From the NCBI GenBank assembly GCA_018818965.1, contig JAHJQX010000014.1, positions 6,178-70,177 on the forward strand: a DNA stretch of 64,000 nt. Direction: 5' to 3'. This DNA is from Patescibacteria group bacterium. GTDB lineage: Bacteria > Patescibacteriota > JABMPQ01. Position 1 is the stretch's first letter; the number at the start of each line of letters is the position of its first letter. This document shows, one piece after another, positions 15,950-55,989 of this stretch. The translations under genes were made by a program, and so were the position numbers. The notes under the pieces were generated by a model. It had not been told where the DNA came from and did not search any database. It saw only the letters and a list, made by a program, of their open reading frames with translations.

Positions 15950-15963
15950 GGGAGAGAGTCAAC
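15950..15963. repeat. Direct repeat GGGAGAGAGTCAAC (left copy) flanking GC-rich islet 1
   Basis: Exact 14-mer also present at 19574-19587. Confidence 0.7.
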
Positions 15964-16354
15964 TAGCAGCAATGCTAGGAGTATAAATTATACTATCAAG
16001 CTCTCTTGTGGTCGCGAGAGAGTTTTTTTGTCTTCTCTGGAAAGGGGCGTTAGCGCTCTTCTCCAGGTAAGATAAAGCCCTGAACATTATAACTAAGCGG
16101 GTTCTTCCCTCATTGCGCTTTTTGCGGAGAGTGCAGCGGGAGAAGAATCCCGAGGCGAGGAGTGCCTCGAAAAAAACTTCGTAATACTCCGGGGAAGCAC
16201 CGGGGCGCGCTGAGGCAGCGCGTAAAATTGCCTAGCAAAATCACGAGCCAGTAAAGGCCCAGCCCTGCACGATGCGGGGTGGTTGGGAGCGACACTGACT
16301 GGCTGAGAATCTAGAGCCCCACGTGAATACGGGGCAATCAAGAGGAGCGAGAGA

Positions 16355-16816
16355 ATGTTTTCCGCGCTGATCAACGAGTTGAACGGTATCTGGGGTGGTG
16401 GTCTCGAGGCAGTGCTGGGGTTCGTCGGGCTGCTGTTGGCGGCGCCGGCGCTGTGGTGGTGGCTGCTGCCGCGCTATACGGCGGTGTGCTGCCACGACGG
16501 GAACCGGTGGTTGTCGGACTGCCCGGGGACGTGGAGCAAGGCCCGGGGCGTTGCCGGCAACGACCTGGCCCTCTGGGTCAAGGCGTACGCCGCGCAGGTG
16601 ACGACTGGGAAGTTTCTCCAGCCGCACCAGGCCCGTATCCCCGAGAACCCCGTCCCACGGCGGCTGAAGGTGGTCCTGTTCGGCGAGCAGCGCGGCGTGT
16701 ACTATATCGTCGGGATCAAGATCCTCGACGAGAAAATACTCTCCGAGAAGTCCGACCGAAGCAACACCCCGGTCGTCAACTTTGAGGACGAGGACGAGTA
16801 CCTTCCGCTCCGCTAA
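16355..16816 (+). CDS. Hypothetical protein with N-terminal TM helix (GC-rich islet 1)
   Basis: GAGGAG SD 8 nt upstream; hydrophobic segment LGFVGLLLAAPALWWWLL; high-GC codon usage. Confidence 0.45.
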   Translation: MFSALINELNGIWGGGLEAVLGFVGLLLAAPALWWWLLPRYTAVCCHDGNRWLSDCPGTWSKARGVAGNDLALWVKAYAAQVTTGKFLQPHQARIPENPVPRRLKVVLFGEQRGVYYIVGIKILDEKILSEKSDRSNTPVVNFEDEDEYLPLR

Positions 16817-17261
16817 CGAACCGCCTGCTCCCCCCCAGAGACGTTCGCCAGGCTGACACCCTGGTCGCAGTCAACTGTCCCCGGCGCACGCAGCTGCGTT
16901 GGGTCTACCTCCCCGCTCACCTGTGAGGTGTGAGCGACTACGGGAGCCTACCAAATCCTCATTGTTCTTTTGACCCTTCACCCGGAAGCGCACTATCAGA
17001 GTACGCTTCCCCTTCCAGAGGATAGAAATAAGCTTCTATTCTCTGGAATAGTCATGAGTTACGATTCGTGACTACAAAAAATAGAAAAGTAATCCCTGGG
17101 CTGATCTAGGGATTATTGGTGTACCAACTTCACTCTCTGATTTGCTCTCTAGAAAGCGCAAACCAGCCGTGAACTTGGCACAAGCCAAGTCGAACATTTT
17201 AATCTGAGAATCGAAACCGACAAACAAAGCGCCTATTAAAAGACGCGAACAGGAGAAACTG

Positions 17262-19544
17262 GTGGCTAGCATTACGAGACAGGGTCCGCAGTACCACGGC
17301 CAGAGTGTGGAAGACCTCCGCACTTGGGCAGTCATCGAACGGCTGCCCTGGCTGGTGGAGGCCCTCGGCTTGACGGCCGGGGCGATCTGTGGATCCTTGG
17401 AGGAGGCGCTGCGGCGCCAGGTATACGGCTTGGGTAGCGCCGACGAGCTGCCCGCTCCCATTGACTGGGAGCGTAACGGTATCATCATCTCCCCGCCGGG
17501 GACGGGCAAGGGCATGGCCTGCTTCGTGGAGGCACTTCTGCACTACGAGCGGGTCTACGTGCTCGTGCCCTCGGTGATCCAGGCGCACAAGCTTGAGGAG
17601 AGCTTGGACGTCTTGTTTCATCGGGATCTGGGTGGCTGTGCAACGAGTCAGCGCAAGGCGCGGGGTCTGATCCGGGTCATCACGACCGGCATCTTCCACC
17701 AACTGGTGGCGGATGAGGACTCACAGCTGTGGGAGGACGGCACGGTTCTGATCGTGGACGAGGCGCAGCGGATTCTGGAGAACGATCCGGAGACGGAGCT
17801 GATGATCGGCACCTGCGCCTCGCAAGGGGTGCCGGTGATGATCGTCTCGGCGACGATTGCTCCGGGGACGTTGCCTGAAGTCTACGGTCACGGCGCGAGC
17901 GAGCCGGCTCAGGTCTACAGCCTGGTCAAGAACATGCACCCGGTGGAGATCGAGGTCACCACTGGCCGCGAGATCACCCAGGTGCTGTCCGAGACCGAGG
18001 AGCTGCTCGCTGACGGTAAGACGACGCTGGTCTTCTGCGCCTCGCGGCGCGAGGTGGCGAGCGTGGCTGATCTGCTGGCTCAACTGGGTGGAGCGACGGT
18101 GCGTGTTACTGGCGCTCATCAGGTGGAGGAGCAGATCGCCGAGATCGAGTCCGCTCAGGCGACCGGTCTGCCGGTGTTCGTGGTGGCCACGCCGGGCACC
18201 ATGGACAGCTCGGTGACGGTGCCGGGACTCTCCTGCGTCGTCATCCAGGACATGCGTTACAGTGTGGACTGGAATAAGTTTGGCGTGATCGAGCGTCGGC
18301 ACGAGACGCTGCCGGTCAACCACATTGTCCAGATGATCCGCCGGGTGGGTCGCATTGCCCGCACGGATGGTCAGCGGGACAAAGTGATCGTGGTTTCGAG
18401 CTGTCCCCGCCCGGAGCTGATGGTGGAAACGCCCCAGTTCCAGCCGATTTCCGGCTGCTCGCCGCACACTCAGATCGAGAACCTCCTGCTGCGCGCCGTG
18501 CAGTTTGACATCCCCTTCGCGGATGTCCACGACTACATGGTTAGCAACTTCGCAGAGGAGCGGATCGAGAAGACGGTGGCGGCGTTGCTGGAGCACGGCA
18601 TGATTGAGCGGGTGGACGACCCTTCCGATCCCGACGGCTTCGAGCTGACGGACAAGGGAGAGTTAGTCATCTCGCTGCCCTTCGAGTATCGCTGGTCGCG
18701 GTTGATCGTGGAGGCGCCGGAGGAGCTGCAGCTGTGGCTCACGCTGGCGGCCGCCTGCGGTCATGTCCGGGACCTGGAGATGCACGAGGAGCAGTCACTC
18801 GACGTGGCTGGTCACCAGCGCTCCGAAGTGCTGCGCAAGATCGCGCTCATGGTCGAGTACCTCGGCCTGGAGCACGACCGCGAGCAGCGCGACGAGGCCG
18901 ACGAGCGGGGACTGTCGTTCCGACGGATGGAGCAGGCAGAGACGCTGTTCGATCTGGCAATGGAGGCCTTGGAGCTGGACTGGGATGTAGACGAGCTGGC
19001 GGTGCCCGAGGGCGAGGAGATGGAGACGCTGCTCTTAGAGATCGTCACCGGCGGGCTGCGGACGGGTTTGTACAAGCTGTACTTCCCGCATCGTGGCGAC
19101 CGTGGTGGTTGGTCTGAGCCGCGGCCTACTCCTGACCTGGACGGCCAGTTTCGGCGTTTCTTCGTCGATGACAACGGCCTGGCTCTCTCGCGGTACGCCG
19201 AGGGCGGGGTTTGCGCCGTTGTCGCCTCGCCGACCTGGTTCACGTCCAAGAACGGCGGCCCCTGCGCCAACCTGGACGACGTGACCATCGTGCCGAGCGA
19301 TCTGCTGCCGCAGCTGGTAGCGGACTTGGCCAAGCGCGAAGGTTGGTTCCAGGTGACCTTCGAGGAGGGCGAGTTCCGGGGCCAGACCAGGCTCGAGGCC
19401 CGCGGCGCCGACGGGTGGACGATCTACCTGCCCAGCCGGATGGACAACGAGCCGGAGGTGGGTGTGGCCTACTGGTGCTCCCCCGATCGTCAGATCGGCC
19501 GGGGCATTCAGACGGTCTGGATCCACTTCCCGGTCAACGGCTAG
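17262..19544 (+). CDS. SF2 DExH-box helicase, NS3/DEAH-like, with degenerate Walker A (GTG start)
   Basis: Motifs read by eye: I PPGTGKG (no canonical GK[ST]), Ia VLVPSV, II DEAQ, III SAT, IV-like LVFCASRREVASVADLL, V VVATPGTMDSSVTVPG, VI QMIRRVGRIAR. AGGAG 6 nt before GTG. About 350-aa C-terminal extension of unknown fold. Confidence 0.7.
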   Translation: MASITRQGPQYHGQSVEDLRTWAVIERLPWLVEALGLTAGAICGSLEEALRRQVYGLGSADELPAPIDWERNGIIISPPGTGKGMACFVEALLHYERVYVLVPSVIQAHKLEESLDVLFHRDLGGCATSQRKARGLIRVITTGIFHQLVADEDSQLWEDGTVLIVDEAQRILENDPETELMIGTCASQGVPVMIVSATIAPGTLPEVYGHGASEPAQVYSLVKNMHPVEIEVTTGREITQVLSETEELLADGKTTLVFCASRREVASVADLLAQLGGATVRVTGAHQVEEQIAEIESAQATGLPVFVVATPGTMDSSVTVPGLSCVVIQDMRYSVDWNKFGVIERRHETLPVNHIVQMIRRVGRIARTDGQRDKVIVVSSCPRPELMVETPQFQPISGCSPHTQIENLLLRAVQFDIPFADVHDYMVSNFAEERIEKTVAALLEHGMIERVDDPSDPDGFELTDKGELVISLPFEYRWSRLIVEAPEELQLWLTLAAACGHVRDLEMHEEQSLDVAGHQRSEVLRKIALMVEYLGLEHDREQRDEADERGLSFRRMEQAETLFDLAMEALELDWDVDELAVPEGEEMETLLLEIVTGGLRTGLYKLYFPHRGDRGGWSEPRPTPDLDGQFRRFFVDDNGLALSRYAEGGVCAVVASPTWFTSKNGGPCANLDDVTIVPSDLLPQLVADLAKREGWFQVTFEEGEFRGQTRLEARGADGWTIYLPSRMDNEPEVGVAYWCSPDRQIGRGIQTVWIHFPVNG

Positions 19545-19572
19545 CTCTTTGTTTCTACTCTCGGGGAGAGAG

Positions 19573-19605
19573 TCAACGCTCTTTCCCCGTTTTTTCCCAG
19601 CTTGG
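19573..19605 (+). terminator. Intrinsic terminator after helicase (GGGGAGAGAG-tcaacg-CTCTTTCCCC + GTTTTTT); includes the right direct-repeat copy
   Basis: 10-bp stem with one G-U pair, followed by a T6 run. Confidence 0.6.
19574..19587. repeat. Direct repeat GGGAGAGAGTCAAC (right copy) flanking GC-rich islet 1
   Basis: Exact 14-mer match to 15950-15963. Confidence 0.7.
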
Positions 19606-30849: not shown

Positions 30850-31212
30850 TTATTTAGAATCTAAGATCGCTTTGGTCAACGAATGATAATAAACTAACTC
30901 AATTTTATTCTTCTGGCAATAATCAATCGCTGCTTGCGATTCGCTGCCGGGCTCCAGCCAGATTTTTTGGACGCCACTGGTCTTGATCTTTTCCCAGGCT
31001 GCTTCTGGTGAGGCGATAATACACAGAACATTAATTGAGCTGGGTATTTCTTGGCTTACTTTTTTGACTTGGTAACCTTTTTCTTGCAAGGTTTTGACAA
31101 TGTTTTCGCTGACGCTATCGGTTTCTTCCTCGTACACTCCAAAAACATTTTCTGGAGATAGAAATTTAGGAATCAAACTATTAAATTCAGGGACAAGAGT
31201 GTAGCGGTCCAC
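30850..31212 (-). CDS. CoA-binding-domain protein (YccU-like)
   Basis: Length (~120 aa) and pattern (GYQVKKV...VQKIWLEPG...ELVYYH) resemble pfam13380. Confidence 0.4.
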   Translation of the reverse strand: MDRYTLVPEFNSLIPKFLSPENVFGVYEEETDSVSENIVKTLQEKGYQVKKVSQEIPSSINVLCIIASPEAAWEKIKTSGVQKIWLEPGSESQAAIDYCQKNKIELVYYHSLTKAILDSK

Positions 31213-31681: not shown

Positions 31682-33130
31682 CTACAGTATGACGAAGCGC
31701 ACCGTCAGCCAGGCGAGGTAGGCGATGCAGGTCCAGTAGAGCCGCCACGAAGTGCGAATCCAGGGACCAGGCCCCACTCCCAGCGCACGGCTGATGTAGA
31801 AGTTGGGCAGATTTGCTGGCACCGTCAGGAGCCCACCAAATAGTGCGCCTTGGACCACAGCTGTTGCTAGCAGAGTTGCTGGACCAAGACCCAGCGATTT
31901 GATCAGGCTCATCGGGATTATGATGTAGACCCGGGAAGCCAGGGCGTTGTCGGCGAAGTGGCTGGTTACGGCGCTGAGGAAGAACATCATTAGCGCCAGA
32001 ACGTAGAGCGCGATCGCCTTTGGCATCATCACGGAGAGGACTAGAACTTTCTGCCCGATCCAGATGATCAGCGGTTCAGCTACCACTCCGATCAGCTCGA
32101 GCGCAGCCAGGAGGACGGCCAGGATCAGCGGTTGCCACCTGGCAGTGAAGGCTTCCTCTAGGGCGTGTTGATCGTCCTGGTCAACGTCGGCGTACTTGGC
32201 ATGGGCTAGCAGGTAGCTGTAGACGGCGGCGGCCGAGTCAGCTGCCCACAGAAGCCCTATCCAAACCTGACTTGGCTTGAAGATCGCGGCCAAGATGTGA
32301 GCGATGACGATGCTCACCAGGATGGCGAGCGGCTTGATGCTCTCGCGGCTCAGGCGAGGCTGGTTGTTGCTGAACTCCACATTCTTGCCGACATGCTGAT
32401 AGAAGCGGAAGGTGGTGAGCGTCACGTGCAGCACGCACCCGACTCCCACCCAGGCGATCAGGTCAGTGATCCCCCAGCCGAAGCTTGCTTCCAACTTGCT
32501 CCAGACGATCAGGATGGGGGGAGCGGCGAAAAAAGTGAGCCCACCACCGGAGCCGATGGTAGCGGCCAAACCAACGGCCACGCGTTTCTTGTCTTCCTCG
32601 CTGTCGATCCTCGTTTTAACGTAGTCGCAAAGGAAGACCGCTGCTGCTGGTTCACCGGTGAGTGAGGAGAGGAGGGAACCGCCAGCGATCACCAGGCGCA
32701 TATCCCCGATCCGCTCCAGGAAACCCATGATGGGGATCATGTGTCGAACAGCGATGTTGGCCGCTGACATGATGCCCAATAGAGTGAAGCACTCTCCCCA
32801 GGGGATGTGGAGGCTCTGCCCCCACCAGAGGATGGTGCCCCCAGCGGCGATCCCAACAGCGATTCCGGCCAGTTCTCCTTCGTTGGTGATGCGGTGGAAG
32901 AAGCCGAAGATGGGAAACTTGTACCACCATCGTGGCCCCCCACCGGCCAGAAACATATCAGTCCGGGCCAGACCGTTCATGGCCAGAATGGCGGCCAGGA
33001 GAATTGCTCCTCCCGCTACCAACTGACTGCCGTTTGAGGCCACTGTGGTCAAGAACCCCCCAAAAGCCATGGTGGCCAACCATGACTGCACGAATGCAGC
33101 CCGATACAAATTCTTTCTGCTCATCTTCAC
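31682..33130 (-). CDS. Polytopic ion/anion permease, ArsB/NhaD-like or related transporter (GC-rich islet 2)
   Basis: 482 aa with ~12 TM helices and Gly-rich motifs; codon usage high-GC, unlike neighbours. Confidence 0.45.
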   Translation of the reverse strand: MKMSRKNLYRAAFVQSWLATMAFGGFLTTVASNGSQLVAGGAILLAAILAMNGLARTDMFLAGGGPRWWYKFPIFGFFHRITNEGELAGIAVGIAAGGTILWWGQSLHIPWGECFTLLGIMSAANIAVRHMIPIMGFLERIGDMRLVIAGGSLLSSLTGEPAAAVFLCDYVKTRIDSEEDKKRVAVGLAATIGSGGGLTFFAAPPILIVWSKLEASFGWGITDLIAWVGVGCVLHVTLTTFRFYQHVGKNVEFSNNQPRLSRESIKPLAILVSIVIAHILAAIFKPSQVWIGLLWAADSAAAVYSYLLAHAKYADVDQDDQHALEEAFTARWQPLILAVLLAALELIGVVAEPLIIWIGQKVLVLSVMMPKAIALYVLALMMFFLSAVTSHFADNALASRVYIIIPMSLIKSLGLGPATLLATAVVQGALFGGLLTVPANLPNFYISRALGVGPGPWIRTSWRLYWTCIAYLAWLTVRFVIL

Positions 33131-37257: not shown

Positions 37258-37309
37258 TCGAATGTTAGATTGTTTGTTCATTGTTCAACCGTAAACCACT
37301 GGAGGGAAA

Positions 37310-37471
37310 ATGGCCAAAGGGAACAGAACGAAGAAGAAGAAACAGAGCAGCCGGGTGACGTGCGGCAAGTGTAATCCCAATCGAGCGGGAAGGAAGTACA
37401 CCGTTACTCCTCCCCAGGAGTGTCCAAACTGTCAGCATCTGACAGGCACCTTCTACCGGAGAAAGGATTAG
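37310..37471 (+). CDS. Zinc-ribbon mini-protein, 53 aa (GC-rich islet 3)
   Basis: Hand-called: GGAGGG SD 4 nt before ATG; two CxxC pairs (CGKC...CPNC); Lys-rich N-terminus. Confidence 0.45.
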   Translation: MAKGNRTKKKKQSSRVTCGKCNPNRAGRKYTVTPPQECPNCQHLTGTFYRRKD

Positions 37472-37481
37472 AGAGGATAGA

Positions 37482-37880
37482 ATGGGAGACACGAGACGAC
37501 GTTTGCGACTAGTATTGAAGCATCTGGGAGCTGTAATCTTGTCGGTGGCTGCCTTGTTGATCCTGTTATGTCTGACGGTTGACTCCATGGAGCCCTGGAT
37601 TCCGCTGTCGGCTGCAATCGCAGGGATCGTCTTTTTCTTGGTACGGTCGCGGATCCCACCATACATTCCGGGGGAGAGGGTGGTAGTTTGCGTCGACAAG
37701 CTCGGCCGGTATTCGGTAGAGGATGCCTGGTTAGCGATGACCGGTTCGATCAAGGGCCGCCTGATTATCGTCACCAACGTATACGGCGTTGATTTTGCTG
37801 TACCGGTTGAATTCGTGATCCTCGCTGATCAAGTGGCGGGAGACCTAGTACCTTCTTCGGCCGATGATGGCTCTGGGTAG
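37482..37880 (+). CDS. 2-TM membrane protein with C-terminal bacterial PH-like domain (bPH_2/DUF304-like) (GC-rich islet 3)
   Basis: GAGAGG SD; two N-terminal TM helices then a ~70-aa beta-rich domain; architecture matches bPH_2 family. Confidence 0.35.
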   Translation: MGDTRRRLRLVLKHLGAVILSVAALLILLCLTVDSMEPWIPLSAAIAGIVFFLVRSRIPPYIPGERVVVCVDKLGRYSVEDAWLAMTGSIKGRLIIVTNVYGVDFAVPVEFVILADQVAGDLVPSSADDGSG

Positions 37881-38046
37881 CCAGAACATCTGCTAATAGT
37901 GGATGTTTTTTTAATATAGAGACCGCAATATTTAATTATCAATATAAAATTAGTTTAGCAGCAACCTGAGTAATATTTCTCGATTGACAACAAAATCTTC
38001 CGGTATTACTCTTAAAGCCAATGTACGTAATTAATTAACAAAACAG

Positions 38047-41164: not shown

Positions 41165-41187
41165 ACAGCGGACAGCCGCTGTTTTTT
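41165..41187 (+). terminator. Intrinsic terminator after pilB (ACAGCGG-acag-CCGCTGT + T5)
   Basis: Perfect 7-bp stem, 4-nt loop, T-run. Confidence 0.7.
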
Positions 41188-41253
41188 GGTATAAAAAAAC
41201 GCAGTGATGAGTTATTCCAAGCGACTAGGAAGTCGGTAGAGACTCTTAACTGC

Positions 41254-41262
41254 GTGGTTGTG
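41254..41262. repeat. Direct repeat GTGGTTGTG (left copy) flanking GC-rich islet 4
   Basis: Exact 9-mer also at 42634-42642, at the opposite islet boundary. Confidence 0.5.
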
Positions 41263-41377
41263 CAAAAGGTTGTGGCAGGACGGCCGCCAGTCTCCGTCCA
41301 TTAGGAGGGTCTGGGTGGCAGACGTGGTACAGGGCTGGAGCTGCCCGGCCACAAGCTGGTTGAGCTGGGTTAGGGAG

Positions 41378-42622
41378 CTAGGCCCGGTACTGGGCGAGAC
41401 AGACGGTGGAAGCGATCGGTCCGCCGATGTTTAGGGAGATGCCGTTTTCACAGTTCGACACCTTCAGCTCTACCGGCACCTGACCGAGGATCTGCTGATG
41501 AACCCAGCCAGCTAGGGCGAGGCCGGTTGCGCTGATGGGATGTCCCTTGGCCATCAGCCCGCCACTGGTGTTGGTGGGCAAGTCGCTGTCGATCCCCATC
41601 ATGTGATCCACGAAGTAGGGCAGACCTTGCCCCGGCTCAGCCAGCCCAGCGATCTCCGCCGTCAGTGGCAGCATGATCGAGAAGCAGTCGTGGGTCTCTA
41701 GGACGCCGATGCACTCGGGCGGGATTTTCGACATCCGAAGGGCTTCCACGAAAGCCTTCTTAGCGCCCACCGGCTGCAGCACGTTGTCGCCGCGGGAGGC
41801 GATGGACAGGCCGTCTACGGCGTGTCCCCAGCCAGCCAGCACGGTAACGTCGTCCTTGGTGAGACCCAGCATGCTCAGCCCCTCTTCGTCGCAGACAACG
41901 AAGCGGCTGTAGCCGTCGGAGATCTGGGAACATTCCTCCAGCTTCAATGGCAGGTCTTCCCCCTCACCCGTTTCCCCGTCCTTCTGGAACAAGCGGTAGC
42001 TGGACAGTACTGACTCGACGGTGATGGGGTTTCTCGGCGTACGCATGTGGGCCAGCGGGTTGTAGGCGGCGTTGGCGTAGAGGTAGGGCGGCAGGATGGC
42101 CAGCTGCTCCTCGCTGATCCCGTACCTCTCCATGTACATGTTCATGATCCGCGCGAAGAGGTGAGGGAAGCTGAAAGGCGGGAAGCGATCATCCGGGTGA
42201 GCAGCCGTTCCCAGCATCTGGCCGATCTTGATCGAGTCGGTCTTGGGAGGCTTGCCGTCCTTTCCCGGCTTCTTGATGTTCATCTTCTCGACGCCAATGG
42301 CCAGGGCGACGTGGGTGTCGCCGCAGCGCACCGTTTTGGCAGCATCCAGCAGGGCGAGCCCGCCGCTGTCGCAGGCGTTCCCCACCCCCACGATGGGCAG
42401 ACTGGTGTAGGCTGGATCCATGGCGACTGCTGCCGCCAGCAGGTGCTGGTCGTTGAGCTGGGGTGCCAGCATGCCAGCCACACTGATGTAGCCGATAGCC
42501 GCTCGCTGCTCATCGTTGAGCCCCTCCCGGCCAGCATCGACCAACATCTCAAGTAGCTCGTAACCCTTCAGGTCGCCGAACATACTCTGCCCATATAGGG
42601 CCAAATACATTTTTCCGTCCAA
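41378..42622 (-). CDS. Thiolase-family protein (SCP-x/archaeal-type acetyl-CoA acetyltransferase-like), TTG start (GC-rich islet 4)
   Basis: VGNACDSGG (active-site Cys motif) and C-terminal NTSGGLMAKGHPISATG; AGGAGG SD 5 nt before TTG; high-GC codon usage. Confidence 0.7.
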   Translation of the reverse strand: MDGKMYLALYGQSMFGDLKGYELLEMLVDAGREGLNDEQRAAIGYISVAGMLAPQLNDQHLLAAAVAMDPAYTSLPIVGVGNACDSGGLALLDAAKTVRCGDTHVALAIGVEKMNIKKPGKDGKPPKTDSIKIGQMLGTAAHPDDRFPPFSFPHLFARIMNMYMERYGISEEQLAILPPYLYANAAYNPLAHMRTPRNPITVESVLSSYRLFQKDGETGEGEDLPLKLEECSQISDGYSRFVVCDEEGLSMLGLTKDDVTVLAGWGHAVDGLSIASRGDNVLQPVGAKKAFVEALRMSKIPPECIGVLETHDCFSIMLPLTAEIAGLAEPGQGLPYFVDHMMGIDSDLPTNTSGGLMAKGHPISATGLALAGWVHQQILGQVPVELKVSNCENGISLNIGGPIASTVCLAQYRA

Positions 42623-42633
42623 GGTTTCCTCCT

Positions 42634-42642
42634 GTGGTTGTG
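42634..42642. repeat. Direct repeat GTGGTTGTG (right copy) flanking GC-rich islet 4
   Basis: Exact 9-mer match to 41254-41262. Confidence 0.5.
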
Positions 42643-42699
42643 ATGGTACAGCAAAAACAGTCGTGTCCCCATTCTATGTTATCCATACTGCCGGTCAAT

Positions 42700-42730
42700 A
42701 CAAAAAGCCCGGCTTTAAAACCGGGCTTAA
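42700..42730 (-). terminator. Intrinsic terminator for the lipoprotein gene (AAGCCCGG-ctttaaaa-CCGGGCTT)
   Basis: Perfect 8-bp stem; A-run on plus equals T-run on minus after the hairpin. Confidence 0.65.
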
Positions 42731-46040: not shown

Positions 46041-46583
46041 ATGAAAAAATCTCTTCTCTTACACATCTGTTGCGCTCCCTGCTCGACCCACGTTATTGAA
46101 AAACTACAAACTGATTTTAAAGTGACCGGTTATTTTTACAATCCTAATCTCTATCCGGAGGCAGAACATGACAAACGTCGACAAGAGGCAGTGCGGTTTG
46201 GTCAGGAAATTGGGATCGAGGTGCTAGCCCCGGAAAAATATGAGAAGGAAAAGTGGTTGGAGCTGGTAGAGGGCTTTGCAGATGAGTCCGAGGGAGGTCA
46301 GCGCTGTGGGATTTGCTATAAAATGAGACTAGAGAAAACTGCTCAACTAGCTGCCAGCAGGAAATTTGATCATTTTGCTACTACCCTTACTATTTCCCCT
46401 TATAAAAAAGCGACAGTGATTAATCCGATAGGTCAAAAGATAAGCCAAGAATACAATGTAAAGTTTCTGGCTGATGATTTTAAGAAAAAGGGCGGTTTTC
46501 AAGAGAGCCTCGATCTATCGACCAAGCATGGACTTTACCGGCAAAATTATTGTGGCTGCGAATTTAGCATGAGAGGTCGATAA
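46041..46583 (+). CDS. queH: Epoxyqueuosine reductase QueH (DUF208)
   Basis: LLHICCAPCS N-terminal cysteine motif plus CGICY and C-terminal CGCEFS; ~180 aa. Confidence 0.75.
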   Translation: MKKSLLLHICCAPCSTHVIEKLQTDFKVTGYFYNPNLYPEAEHDKRRQEAVRFGQEIGIEVLAPEKYEKEKWLELVEGFADESEGGQRCGICYKMRLEKTAQLAASRKFDHFATTLTISPYKKATVINPIGQKISQEYNVKFLADDFKKKGGFQESLDLSTKHGLYRQNYCGCEFSMRGR

Positions 46584-46639
46584 ATCCTTGCTCCTAATTT
46601 TATGCTTGCTACACTGGAATCAAGATTAATAAAAATATT

Positions 46640-46993
46640 ATGGCAAAATTTATCACGAGAACAATAATTGTAGCTTTAACAGTTTTTGGTGTTAGCTATG
46701 TAGTGCCGGGGATCACCGTTAATAATTTTCTGGCCGCTGTTGTGTTTTCCCTAGTTTTAGGCTTGATCAATGTCCTAGGACGGCCGTTGATAAGACTGCT
46801 TACTTTCCCTTTGCGTTGGTTGACGTTTGGCCTTTTCACGCTAGTGATAAATACTTTGCTATTCTGGTTGGCAGCTAGATTTGCAGCGGGAGTGGTAGTG
46901 GCTTCTTTCTGGGCGGCATTTGTGGGAGCACTATTAGTTGGTATAGTTAGTTTGATTGTGAACCAAGTTTTTAAAAAGAGTAAAAAAAGCTAG
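46640..46993 (+). CDS. YvlD/DUF360 4-TM membrane protein (phage-holin-4_2 superfamily)
   Basis: Four TM helices and conserved pattern resembling Bacillus YvlD. Confidence 0.6.
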   Translation: MAKFITRTIIVALTVFGVSYVVPGITVNNFLAAVVFSLVLGLINVLGRPLIRLLTFPLRWLTFGLFTLVINTLLFWLAARFAAGVVVASFWAAFVGALLVGIVSLIVNQVFKKSKKS

Positions 46994-46998
46994 TTATT

Positions 46999-47622
46999 AT
47001 GGTTCTATTTCCCGCTCTAATATATCTCACCATTGTTCTGTCCTTACTGCATTTTGAAGTTTTCGATTTTTCCTTAACTGATAATGGTTTACCAGCTTGG
47101 GTGATCGTAGCCGGCATTCTTCTGATGTTACTTGGCAGCCTGATAGATGTTCCCTTGATCCTGCGTGGGCCGGGACGCAAGCAAGACCGGAGACATTGGC
47201 ATTCACTCTTTCTGGTGACCAACGGTAAGAAAGCTAGAAAAGGTCTTTATCTCAATTTAGGAGGAGCGATTGTCCCAATACTGCTAGCTATATATCTATT
47301 TTCTCACGCTCCACTAGTGCCGACGCTAATAGCTTTGGCAGTGGTTACTATTATCACCAGGTTTATGACTAGGATTTCTTCTTTAAAAGGGAATTGGTTG
47401 CATTTATCAGCGCTTGTCCCTTTACTAGCCGCTTTATGTACGTCTTTACTACTAACCCCTGCTAATCCAGCCATTGTATTCTATCTTGCTGGCACTTTAG
47501 GAACTTTAGTGGGTGCTGGCCTGCTCAATATTAACAAGATAAACGAGGCACCCCTGTTTATCGGTGGGCGAGGGATGTTTCACGGGATATTTTTAGTAAA
47601 TGTCGTTTTCTTACTCCTGTAA
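46999..47622 (+). CDS. Hypothetical polytopic membrane protein
   Basis: 5-6 TM helices, no motif recognised. Confidence 0.4.
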   Translation: MVLFPALIYLTIVLSLLHFEVFDFSLTDNGLPAWVIVAGILLMLLGSLIDVPLILRGPGRKQDRRHWHSLFLVTNGKKARKGLYLNLGGAIVPILLAIYLFSHAPLVPTLIALAVVTIITRFMTRISSLKGNWLHLSALVPLLAALCTSLLLTPANPAIVFYLAGTLGTLVGAGLLNINKINEAPLFIGGRGMFHGIFLVNVVFLLL

Positions 47623-54570: not shown

Positions 54571-54655
54571 CCCGAGGGGGTTGAAAGGAGGAAAATTTAC
54601 CGAAGAGTGTTGTAAAGGGACAGATCGACAATGAGGAAGAGACAAGGAGACGAGG

Positions 54656-55453
54656 ATGAAGAGGGACGAGCGATTCAAGGCCCGGACAGATGCCGGAGTC
54701 ATCACGTTCTACGAAGACTTGAGGATGCTGGGAGCACTGCTCATCTATGGCGGACTCGACCGCGGGTTCGTGCTCAAGGTGGTTATGTTCCTGCTCACCG
54801 AGTTTCGCATCACCTTCGGCGAGCTGGCAGAGGTGTCAGAGGAGTTCCGGATCGGCGAGGACGAGGAACCGGAGTCTGCCAGGGAGACCGCCGAGGTCAG
54901 GACGGTGCACATGGGTGACACCGCGCCCTACCCGCCCGCCGGCGTCGAAGCTGCTGCTGAGGGTGATGCGGACGGTGGGCCGATCGCGAAGGTTCCCACC
55001 CAGCCGCTTCCCGACGAGCTGGACGGCGCCGGTGAGCAGGACACGCCCCCGGCCGGCATGAAACAGTGCGTGCACTGCCACGAGTACAAGATCCCGGCCG
55101 ACAAGTCGACCGTCGTCTGCTCGGGCTGCGAGGAGAAGCTGAAGGCGGAGTTCGACGGTGACGACGACGAGGACGAGGACAACGAGCCTGAAGTCGGAGA
55201 CGCCCCCCCGGAGGCCATCGTGACGTCCCCGCCCCCCGCCGAGGCCGCGACCGAGCTGGGCGCCGAGGATGATGACGACGACGAGGAGGGCTCTCCCGTC
55301 GCTACCCCGCCCGCCGAGCTCGAGCCCGCCGTGACCGACGAGGACGCCGGCCTGGAGCCCCCCGAGGAGATCGTGGTCGCGGACGCCGACGAGCCCGAGG
55401 GCACCTACGACCCGGTTGCCCAGAAGGGTCCCGGTGGCGGAACCGGCTGCTAG
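54656..55453 (+). CDS. Highly acidic protein with N-terminal ~70-aa domain and central CxxC...CxxC zinc-ribbon (GC-rich islet 5)
   Basis: AGGAG SD 6 nt upstream; CVHC...CSGC; long D/E/P/A low-complexity tracts; own terminator at 55515-55549. Confidence 0.5.
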   Translation: MKRDERFKARTDAGVITFYEDLRMLGALLIYGGLDRGFVLKVVMFLLTEFRITFGELAEVSEEFRIGEDEEPESARETAEVRTVHMGDTAPYPPAGVEAAAEGDADGGPIAKVPTQPLPDELDGAGEQDTPPAGMKQCVHCHEYKIPADKSTVVCSGCEEKLKAEFDGDDDEDEDNEPEVGDAPPEAIVTSPPPAEAATELGAEDDDDDEEGSPVATPPAELEPAVTDEDAGLEPPEEIVVADADEPEGTYDPVAQKGPGGGTGC

Positions 55454-55514
55454 CAGTCGCAACCTACCCCCCGAGCCATTTCTGGCTCACCGAACATCCC
55501 CAGGAGTGAACCAT

Positions 55515-55549
55515 CCCTGAATCCCACCGATTCTCAGGGATTTTTTTTT
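55515..55549 (+). terminator. Intrinsic terminator (CCCTGA-13nt-TCAGGG + T9)
   Basis: 6-bp stem followed by nine T residues, about 60 nt after the stop of 54656..55453. Confidence 0.65.
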
Positions 55550-55588
55550 GCTGCGCTTTCTTTCTCCATTACTAGCGAGCAGATGAAA

Positions 55589-55599
55589 CATTTAGCCAA
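55589..55599. repeat. Direct repeat CATTTAGCCAA (right copy) flanking GC-rich islet 5
   Basis: Exact 11-mer match to 54560-54570. Confidence 0.55.
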
Positions 55600-55692
55600 T
55601 AAAGAAATCCAGTTGCCACTAATAATTGGATCTTGAATGATGAACCAGAAACTGCTATTTTTAAGGTATTCACTAGGCTATAGGAGATAACG

Positions 55693-55911
55693 ATGACTGG
55701 TCCGAACGGACCTGGGCCTCTACCCTCCAACTCTGGTAGGGAGCCGTCTGAGGGCAGAGAGACGATTGTGGAGTACACTCCTCTGACCCCAACCGGTCTC
55801 CCCCCCAGATGTGAAGGGGTGGACTGCGAGGCGTTCAGCATTCCCTGCCGTACCTCCCCTCCTCGAGAACCGACTTCTCCTCCCACGACCAAAAAAATCG
55901 ACCCAAAGTAG
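55693..55911 (+). CDS. Pro-rich small protein, 72 aa (GC-rich, just outside right repeat of islet 5)
   Basis: TAGGAGA SD 5 nt before ATG; competing antisense ORF 55572..55961 lacks an SD; coding status uncertain. Confidence 0.3.
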   Translation: MTGPNGPGPLPSNSGREPSEGRETIVEYTPLTPTGLPPRCEGVDCEAFSIPCRTSPPREPTSPPTTKKIDPK

Positions 55912-55989
55912 GTCGAAAATGAGAATCCCTGCCCCTTTTTGCCCTTCGCCATGGCCAGCAACTACTGCTCGGCCACTTTTTTACCATCT

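Follow-up and report, generated by a model that had tools for sequence, protein, structure and literature searches.

Islet 4 is a GC-rich segment of the 64-kb stretch of Patescibacteria DNA analysed here (the window; its genome is designated W), and its gene encodes a thiolase on the minus strand, next to pilB. Comparison with related genomes describes the islet as an old, foreign, stand-alone SCP2-type thiolase cassette that is decaying in sister lineages. We hold it probable that an old horizontal gain was followed by vertical inheritance as a dispensable gene, with disruption in one relative (L002) and deletion in another (L003). The gene would have entered the ancestor of a small Parcubacteria/Patescibacteria clade by horizontal gene transfer (HGT) from a GC-rich bacterium, before the split between W and a third relative (L001) about 0.8–1.4 substitutions per four-fold degenerate site ago, and would then have descended as an accessory gene under moderate purifying selection in W and L001. 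An IS30 element interrupts it in L002, and a clean deletion between two copies of the spacer GGTAT(T)A5-7 would have removed it from L003. This account is built on the observed anatomy of the unit, its synteny and co-divergence with the backbone, its loss or disruption in relatives and its catalytic motifs. Because HGT in Patescibacteria is documented (PMC12455944) and SCP2-type thiolases are well characterised, islet 4 fits known kinds. A sharp GC islet with a short flanking repeat need not mean a recent insertion: three relatives overturned that appearance, and the true junction was re-located to a terminator spacer.

The thiolase occupies the same locus in related genomes

The islet is sharply set off in composition, as the preliminary description had stated, with a GC content of 0.58–0.73 from ~41250 to ~42620 against 0.38–0.46 outside. 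The thiolase open reading frame (ORF) has 62% GC against ~42% in the backbone (0.618 for the coding sequence), and its GC at third codon positions (GC3) is 0.807 against about 0.40 in the window backbone. The relatives compared with W are L001 (a Logan SRR22387952 contig), L002 (JGI 3300033064; its contig is also L004, NCBI JABMPQ010000034.1, ‘Parcubacteria group bacterium’) and L003 (JBDRPV010000028.1). After the window protein itself, the top matches to the thiolase are those of L001 (P0002, 69% amino acid identity) and L002 (P0003, 76%), followed by a large cloud of homologs at about 55%. The gene order Lon, small protein, thiolase, PilB, GDH, DHH is common to W, L001 and L002, and in all three the GC3 of the thiolase (0.81, 0.78 and 0.79, respectively) contrasts with 0.38–0.47 in the flanks.

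The thiolases have diverged in step with the genes around them. The four-fold sites of the flanking genes give the backbone tree (L001,(W,(L002,L003))), and the thiolases of W, L001 and L002, all from the Candidate Phyla Radiation (CPR), group together when 120 homologs are placed in a distance tree, W and L002 being sisters and the nearest non-CPR distance 0.5–0.7. Divergence at four-fold sites (K4) is 0.64 between the W and L002 thiolases (flanking genes, 0.57–0.62), 0.80 between W and L001 (1.0–1.4) and 1.04 between L001 and L002 (0.85–1.19). The shared slot and the co-diverging synonymous distances indicate that the thiolase was in place before W, L001 and L002 split, about one synonymous substitution per site ago; its arrival in the window genome was, on these sequence comparisons, not recent. 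The ratio of nonsynonymous to synonymous divergence (dN/dS) among the three thiolase copies is 0.23–0.25 against 0.02–0.09 in the core flanks, indicating relaxed purifying selection, as expected of an accessory gene. Searches anchored on Lon yielded only L003 and L004 among genomes and no further close relatives in metagenomes, just the fragments L124 and L102.

The preliminary description had proposed a recent acquisition, and had named a thiolase tree nested within close relatives of the backbone lineage as the outcome that would speak against it. That is the tree obtained: it nests among those relatives and mirrors the backbone tree, and the closest thiolases lie at the same locus with flank-like synonymous divergence. 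Since L001 and L002 carry the gene at this locus, it was not gained after the relatives diverged, as a recent island would have been.

The present/absent unit is the whole transcription unit

Two of the relatives show the unit in states of decay. In L002 homology to the thiolase ends after ...CCGGAGATT and is followed by a low-GC ORF on the opposite strand, which encodes an IS30-family transposase (252 bits, cutoff 80; L002:10965-11870); the L002 contig, and with it JABMPQ010000034.1, ends inside this element. In L003, whose Lon is 96% identical, the site is empty, with 160 bp from PilB to the lipoprotein gene and no GC-rich segment. L003 is sister to the thiolase-bearing L002, so that by parsimony the absence would be a secondary deletion, a direction read from the tree.

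The empty site also locates the junctions. On the left, W has the PilB terminator, TTTTTT, GGTATAAAAAAA (41188-41199) and the thiolase terminator, and L003 has the PilB terminator, TTTTT, GGTATAAAAA and the terminator of the lipoprotein gene. On the right, L001 has the thiolase promoter, an intact GGTATTAAAAAAA and the lipoprotein terminator, while W and L002 carry a degenerate form, GGTCAATACAAAAA (42693-42706), which in W overlaps the -35 box of the thiolase promoter. The sole L003 junction, GGTATAAAAA, aligns both to the W left junction (a 27-nt alignment, p<0.003) and to the L001 right junction (p<0.002), so that the unit present or absent is the entire transcription unit at ~41200-42706, with its AT-rich promoter and its terminator included. 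Imperfect copies of the inter-terminator spacer, GGTAT(T)A5-7, lie at the junctions and may have had a role in the deletion. The hairpin left in L003 carries CAAGCGAGCTAGG, which resembles the loop of the W thiolase terminator (p 0.006–0.04) and might be a faint footprint of the former thiolase unit.

High GC persists in the thiolase

Several points weigh against the history favoured here. Synonymous divergence between the W and L001 thiolases lies below that of the flanks (K4 0.80 vs 1.0–1.4; NG86 synonymous divergence, dS, 0.99 vs 2.4–2.7), and this could reflect a later transfer between lineages, not strict vertical descent. The GC content of the thiolase at four-fold sites (GC4), 0.77–0.78, is at or above the neutral-decay expectation, and the spacer repeat is perfect at both ends in no single genome. 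Gain and loss are read from a four-taxon tree, the collections searched having provided three thiolase-bearing genomes (W, L001 and L002) and one empty site.

The thiolases of W and L001 have GC4 values of 0.770 and 0.779, respectively, and the disrupted copy of L002 has 0.743. A crude, F81-like decay model based on few flanking genes (backbone K4 of 0.5–0.7 per lineage, about 71% of it between strong (G or C) and weak (A or T) bases; equilibrium GC4 of 0.45–0.50), when started at the W/L001 split from a GC4 of 0.97, the top outgroup value, predicts at most 0.64–0.76 now. Polarised four-fold changes, in small counts, number 6 strong-to-weak and 4 weak-to-strong on the W branch and 9 and 3 on the L002 branch, the expected ratios being about 5:1 under free amelioration and 1:1 at stationarity. 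The persistence of high GC could stem from constraint, from a bias in gene conversion, from later transfer between W and L001, or from a very GC-rich donor combined with the crudeness of the model.

To the first two of these we give a small but appreciable probability: the high GC would then not be a fading signature of import but actively maintained in the cassette, whether through selection acting on synonymous sites or mRNA structure or through GC-biased gene conversion that accompanies the recombination of accessory DNA. The GC4 retained in W and L001 after a K4 of at least 0.8–1.4, the near-even changes on the W branch and a thiolase K4 below that of the flanks all point this way. So does the 3′ tail, which is GC-rich in both lineages without conservation of sequence: the W and L001 tails show no alignment to one another, and the 196-nt W tail is strongly structured (−61.7 kcal/mol, z = −4.7 vs shuffles), although that of L001 is not beyond shuffles (z = −1.5). 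The counts of changes, however, are small enough that the two branches pooled (15 vs 7) fit a 1:1 as well as a 5:1 ratio, ordinary decay would account for the interrupted L002 copy (9:3, GC4 0.74), and outgroup GC3 values near 0.97 exist, so that the neutral model, itself crude, is only marginally exceeded. We are equally doubtful of the general form of this idea, in which foreign GC-rich single-gene cassettes of this Parcubacteria clade fail to ameliorate, their GC3 of about 0.8, and the high GC even of their non-coding tails, being held non-neutrally far above the ~0.4 of the backbone through more than one synonymous substitution per site. If it were true, the age of a transfer could hardly be read from the compositional islets of CPR genomes, and these islets would mark a distinct, persistently maintained gene class, with synonymous-site or mRNA-structure selection, or GC-biased gene conversion accompanying recombination of accessory DNA in naturally competent episymbionts, as candidate causes. 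Slow GC loss is the sole feature of the islet of potentially wider interest.

Lateral spread among related Parcubacteria

The shared locus might also be explained by a single acquisition in one lineage followed by lateral spread between related Parcubacteria, through homologous recombination in the conserved flanks, or by repeated gain at the GGTAT-A-run site; under both schemes descent would not be strictly vertical and L003 perhaps never had the gene. The organisms carry genes for DNA uptake and type IV pili, with pilB adjoining the thiolase, and documented HGT into Patescibacteria is mostly not recent and mostly from other Patescibacteria (PMC12455944). The presence of the thiolase is patchy, the L003 junction resembles a clean, single-copy ‘attB-like’ spacer, and the low W–L001 thiolase divergence is of the kind that such spread would leave. 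We nevertheless consider this explanation unlikely, as the thiolase topology and the W–L002 divergence match the backbone, L003 is sister to a genome that bears the gene, and CAAGCGAGCTAGG in the L003 hairpin hints at its former presence there.

The 9-bp repeat lies inside the unit

The 9-mer GTGGTTGTG (CACAACCAC on the coding strand) occurs at both composition boundaries, at 41254-41262 and 42634-42642, and the preliminary description took it for a direct repeat bracketing the insertion. Its positions are exact, and no other exact copy exists in the 64 kb (0.22 expected). A recent, lineage-specific insertion, with the 9-mer as a target-site duplication or microhomology scar, would draw on this placement at the two GC boundaries and on the sharply foreign composition, yet it is very improbable. 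Relatives at K4 of 0.6–1.4 share the slot with its thiolase, L001 has neither copy of the 9-mer, and the presence/absence junctions lie about 55–65 bp outside both copies, so that the unit missing in L003 takes in the low-GC promoter and terminator as well. Two neutral 9-bp copies would, moreover, be very unlikely to stay intact through about 0.4–0.5 substitutions per site per lineage.

The agreement of the two copies is also within reach of chance. When boundary zones are drawn in random pairs from the window, a common exact word of 9 nt or more turns up in 6.3% of trials for zones of ±60 nt, in 17.8% for ±100 nt and in 35% for ±150 nt, and the figure is 2% when the shuffling is confined to the leader (50 nt) and the tail (177 nt); these rates have to be set against multiple looks, about five islets having been examined for the preliminary description. 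A frequency check across the window confirms that there are two exact copies, but one-mismatch variants are 2.8-fold over-represented (24 vs 8.7 expected). A longer exact repeat, the 11-mer GTTGAGCTGGG, is found at 41359 and 42452 within the same 1.7 kb. Words resembling CACAACCAC abound in the C-rich 3′ untranslated region (UTR), as in CCACAACC and, in L001, CAACAACCAC and AACCAAAACCAACC. The right copy belongs to a leader of which L002 has the same ~20 nt, whereas L001 has another sequence. The GC boundaries with which the 9-mers coincide are functional ones, one formed by the Shine-Dalgarno sequence and start codon and the other by the beginning of the terminator hairpin. Because the 9-mers lie inside the present/absent unit, are absent from L001 and fall within chance, bracketing of the islet by a 9-bp direct repeat is not supported. 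Most likely the pair is a compositional coincidence unrelated to the insertion, in which a word of the conserved 5′ leader matches one of the C/A-rich 3′ UTR.

Islet 4 shares its GC anomaly and the short direct repeat near both ends with a classical genomic island or transposon, but differs in having no integrase, transposase, tRNA target or terminal inverted repeats, and in that the 9-mer is off the junction. No terminal inverted repeats pairing the ends of islet 4 were found, and insertion of a transposon, an insertion sequence or a miniature inverted-repeat transposable element with a target-site duplication was rejected on this ground. The islet holds no mobility gene (integrase or transposase), the thiolase being its sole non-nested ORF of at least 60 amino acids (aa), and Rfam and tRNA scans found no RNA gene in or near it, the sole window tRNA lying at 1-71. 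The structured 3′ tail prompted comparison with an integron gene cassette, which was rejected because attC end motifs (RYYYAAC-N45-135-GTTRRRY) are found at none of the islets and the gene has its own promoter.

Finally, the GC-rich islets of this one metagenome-assembled contig, several in number and abrupt in their GC steps, might suggest an assembly or binning chimera, with a GC-rich segment from another organism joined in silico. This is for practical purposes ruled out: three independent assemblies from different samples have the same arrangement, with promoter, Shine-Dalgarno sequence and flank terminators continuous; an independent Logan assembly matches islet 1, on the same contig, along 9.7 kb at 100%; and the window thiolase protein is recorded in NCBI and JGI on a ~95.8-kb contig.

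The encoded enzyme is an SCP2-type thiolase

The identification of the gene as a thiolase stands, with Pfam matches to Thiolase_C_1 (72.6 bits, cutoff 28) and Thiolase_N (39.1 bits, cutoff 26.4) and a full set of catalytic motifs. The CxS nucleophile lies in ACDSG (residues 83-87), where Cys84 aligns to the catalytic Cys of 7yvy and 4bi9, and is followed by HDCF at 311-314 (His311, Cys313) and GHP at 360-362, whose His361 belongs to the oxyanion hole. The CxGGGxG loop (C.GGG.G) is absent from the window thiolase, whose C-terminus reads SLNIGGPIA. Both CxS and HDCF are kept in 120 of the 120 closest homologs, and GHP in 119. In the SCP2-type signature HDCF replaces NEAF, its Cys being the second catalytic residue and acting as acid/base (PMC7682436). 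By its domains and motifs the enzyme is an SCP2-type thiolase with intact predicted catalytic residues; it would cleave 3-ketoacyl-CoA to, or form it by condensation from, acyl-CoA and acetyl-CoA.

The solved SCP2-type (SCP-x-like) thiolases (the trypanosomatid SCP2-thiolase or SCP2-thiolase-like proteins 4bi9 and 3zbg, and the vertebrate type-1 6hsj) have in common with the window protein Thiolase_N and Thiolase_C_1, the CxS, HDCF and GHP motifs and the lack of CxGGGxG. The window protein matches them at only about 125–130 bits and differs from them in having no fused SCP2 domain, in being bacterial and in belonging to an uncharacterised subfamily. Its nearest solved structures are 7yvy (168 bits), 4bi9 and 3zbg (about 128–130 bits) and the archaeal 6esq, the best overall matches being with the archaeal/bacterial PRK06064 group (6esq, 7yvy; NCBIfam PRK06064, AcCoTHIOL_METTL), although 7yvy carries HDAF where the window thiolase carries HDCF. 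None of the curated NCBIfam thiolase cutoffs is reached, PRK07516 and AcCoTHIOL_METTL included (best PRK06064, 198 bits vs cutoff 420), which places the thiolase in no curated subfamily. 6esq is a complex of acetoacetyl-CoA thiolase, HMG-CoA synthase and DUF35 (OB-fold/Zn-ribbon), and neither a DUF35 nor an HMG-CoA synthase gene adjoins the thiolase in W, in L001 and L002, or in the outgroup loci L128 and L130. The thiolase has no PADLOC match, and a defence-system reading was rejected on that account.

Anatomy of the transcription unit

Islet 4 is a self-contained single-gene transcription unit. The sigma-70-like promoter on the minus strand (TTGACC-16 nt-TAGAAT, 42671-42698) matches the consensus at 10 of 12 positions, and its -35 and -10 blocks are kept in L001 and L002 and absent from L003. 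Downstream of it the right GTGGTTGTG copy lies in the C/A-rich 5′ leader, immediately upstream of the Shine-Dalgarno sequence AGGAGG (CCTCCT on the plus strand, 42628-42633), which stands 5 nt from the TTG start and is kept in L002. The CDS (minus strand, 41378-42622, 414 aa in the window ORF list, stop codon at 41380-41378) is followed by a GC-rich, C-rich 3′ UTR of 115 nt (42% C) with a long imperfect hairpin (41267-41357, minus strand; arms 41267-41284 and 41340-41357). The left GTGGTTGTG copy, without an L001 counterpart, falls in this 3′ UTR between the long hairpin and the thiolase intrinsic terminator (41199-41255, minus strand), whose arms at 41199-41212 and 41242-41255 precede a U-run (the complement of 41193-41199).

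The length, strand, TTG start, Shine-Dalgarno sequence and neighbours given in the preliminary description agree with these coordinates, and both of its motifs, VGNACDSGG and NTSGGLMAKGHPISATG, are present in the 414-aa translation. In NCBI the protein (MBU1177868.1, ‘thiolase family protein [Patescibacteria group bacterium]’) has 401 aa, its start being placed 13 codons further along. Thiolase homologs share a conserved N-terminus, MKKLYLxxYxQSxFG, which favours the upstream TTG at 42622, with its AGGAGG, over the NCBI call; as far as sequence can tell, it is supported as the better start.

On the left of the unit, pilB (a T2SSE ATPase by Pfam) ends in an intrinsic terminator on the plus strand (41165-41187; hairpin ACAGCGG-ACA-GCCGCTGT with a T-run) that is conserved in L001 and L003. 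On the right lies a 218-aa lipoprotein-like gene without a Pfam match, whose terminator on the minus strand (42705-42728) is AAGCCCGGTTTTAAAGCCGGGCTT with a T-run, and beyond it Lon. To the right of Lon (window 46041-47622) the K4 of W against L002 and L003 rises from 0.62 in Lon to 0.93–1.33 in QueH and 1.7–2.3 in DUF1614, whereas the L002–L003 synonymous distance remains about 0.5; the window lineage may have a recombination boundary at this point. Between DUF1614 and ThiI, L002 has genes of 94 aa and 394 aa, both without a Pfam match, that are missing from the window.

Donor and partner genes

The named outgroup homologs belong to Deltaproteobacteria, Binatia, Myxococcales, Polyangiaceae and Pseudomonadota. 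The nearest non-CPR thiolases, at about 55% identity, are those of the first four names, in genomes of 64–70% GC (L128, 70%; L130, a Binatia genome, 64%) where the thiolase GC3 is 0.82–0.97. These GC-rich outgroup members fit a GC-rich donor, which would have been a Deltaproteobacteria/Myxococcota/Binatia-like bacterium, and they bear out the view that the thiolase is foreign to the backbone in both composition and phylogeny. The origin of the gene possibly hints at the type of organisms that exchange DNA with these cells. Islet 4 resembles the HGT genes and islands described for Patescibacteria (PMC12455944) in being of foreign composition in a streamlined CPR genome, not recent and patchy among relatives, and is unlike those islands in comprising a single gene in 1.5 kb, without a mobility gene and with a putative donor outside Patescibacteria.

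No acyl-CoA partner of the thiolase is apparent: the 48 window ORFs scanned include no fatty-acid, beta-oxidation, mevalonate, DUF35 or HMG-CoA synthase gene. The solitary state noted in the preliminary description thus holds for the 64-kb window, but the gene also stands alone in the outgroup loci L128 and L130, which makes solitude a property of the family and not the sign of recent arrival that it had been taken for. A stand-alone SCP2-type thiolase with no acyl-CoA pathway visible nearby hints at scavenging of host-derived CoA thioesters. The sole other CoA-related gene of the window encodes a 120-aa CoA_binding_2 protein (30850-31212); a 108-aa gene separates it from islet 2, at a distance of about 470 bp.

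Other GC-rich islets of the window

Further GC-rich islets lie at 16.1–19.6 kb, 31.6–33.1 kb, 37.3–37.9 kb (weak) and 54.6–55.9 kb. A common flanking-repeat rule for all islets was rejected: only the repeat of islet 1 is clearly non-random, there is none at islets 2 and 3, and the 11-mer of islet 5 is not in the L003 empty site. A single donor for all of them was likewise rejected, because islet 2 has its nearest relatives, at ≤55% identity, among other CPR lineages (Peregrinibacteria, Peribacteraceae and Kerfeldbacteria).

Islet 1 (16089-19591, 3.6 kb) has exact copies of the 14-mer GGGAGAGAGTCAAC at 15950-15963 and 19564-19577 (chance about 3–7e-4), which may be a real att-like or junction repeat; both copies are present, with the islet, in the independent Logan assembly L135 already mentioned. 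The islet encodes a 760-aa DEAD/Helicase_C protein (MBU1177846.1; window 16355-19544) and a 153-aa ORF, with no integrase. The helicase family comprises 28 proteins at ≤62% identity, and the contexts examined are GC-rich (L131, L134) or moderately GC-elevated (L132) contig segments. A SAVED-domain gene (PADLOC SAVED4, E 9e-17) directly precedes the helicase in L134 (1790-4685) and L131 (9236-12289), and in L131 the helicase lies within a 10-kb, 60%-GC island of a ~50%-GC contig, beside weak Csx3 and T4_Y16D matches. PADLOC gives no more than weak helicase matches, and the arrangement may represent an unclassified defence or mobile-element module.

Islet 2 (31682-33130) holds a 60%-GC gene for a DUF1646/Na_H_antiport_3 membrane protein, with the GC step at the stop codon on one side. 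At islet 3 (37258-38046) the DHH–GDH spacer is 789 nt in the window and 122 nt and 138 nt in L001 and L003, respectively; the insertion of ~650 nt (GC 0.48) contains a 132-aa ORF (37482-37880) without a Pfam match, and the aligned DNA, inspected by eye, suggests a further small ORF with CxxC...CxxC upstream of it. Unlike islet 4, islet 3 looks like a genuine gain specific to the window lineage. Islet 5 (54616-55916), absent from L003, encodes a highly acidic 265-aa protein with a CxxC...CxxC motif at 70% GC; its ORF is flanked by the 11-mer CATTTAGCCAA (54560, 55589) and followed by a further GC-rich, apparently non-coding stretch at ~55690-55890 with no Rfam match. At the corresponding site L003 (15690-15858) retains a stretch that resembles a terminator and has its homolog at ~55520-55565 of the window (p<0.003).

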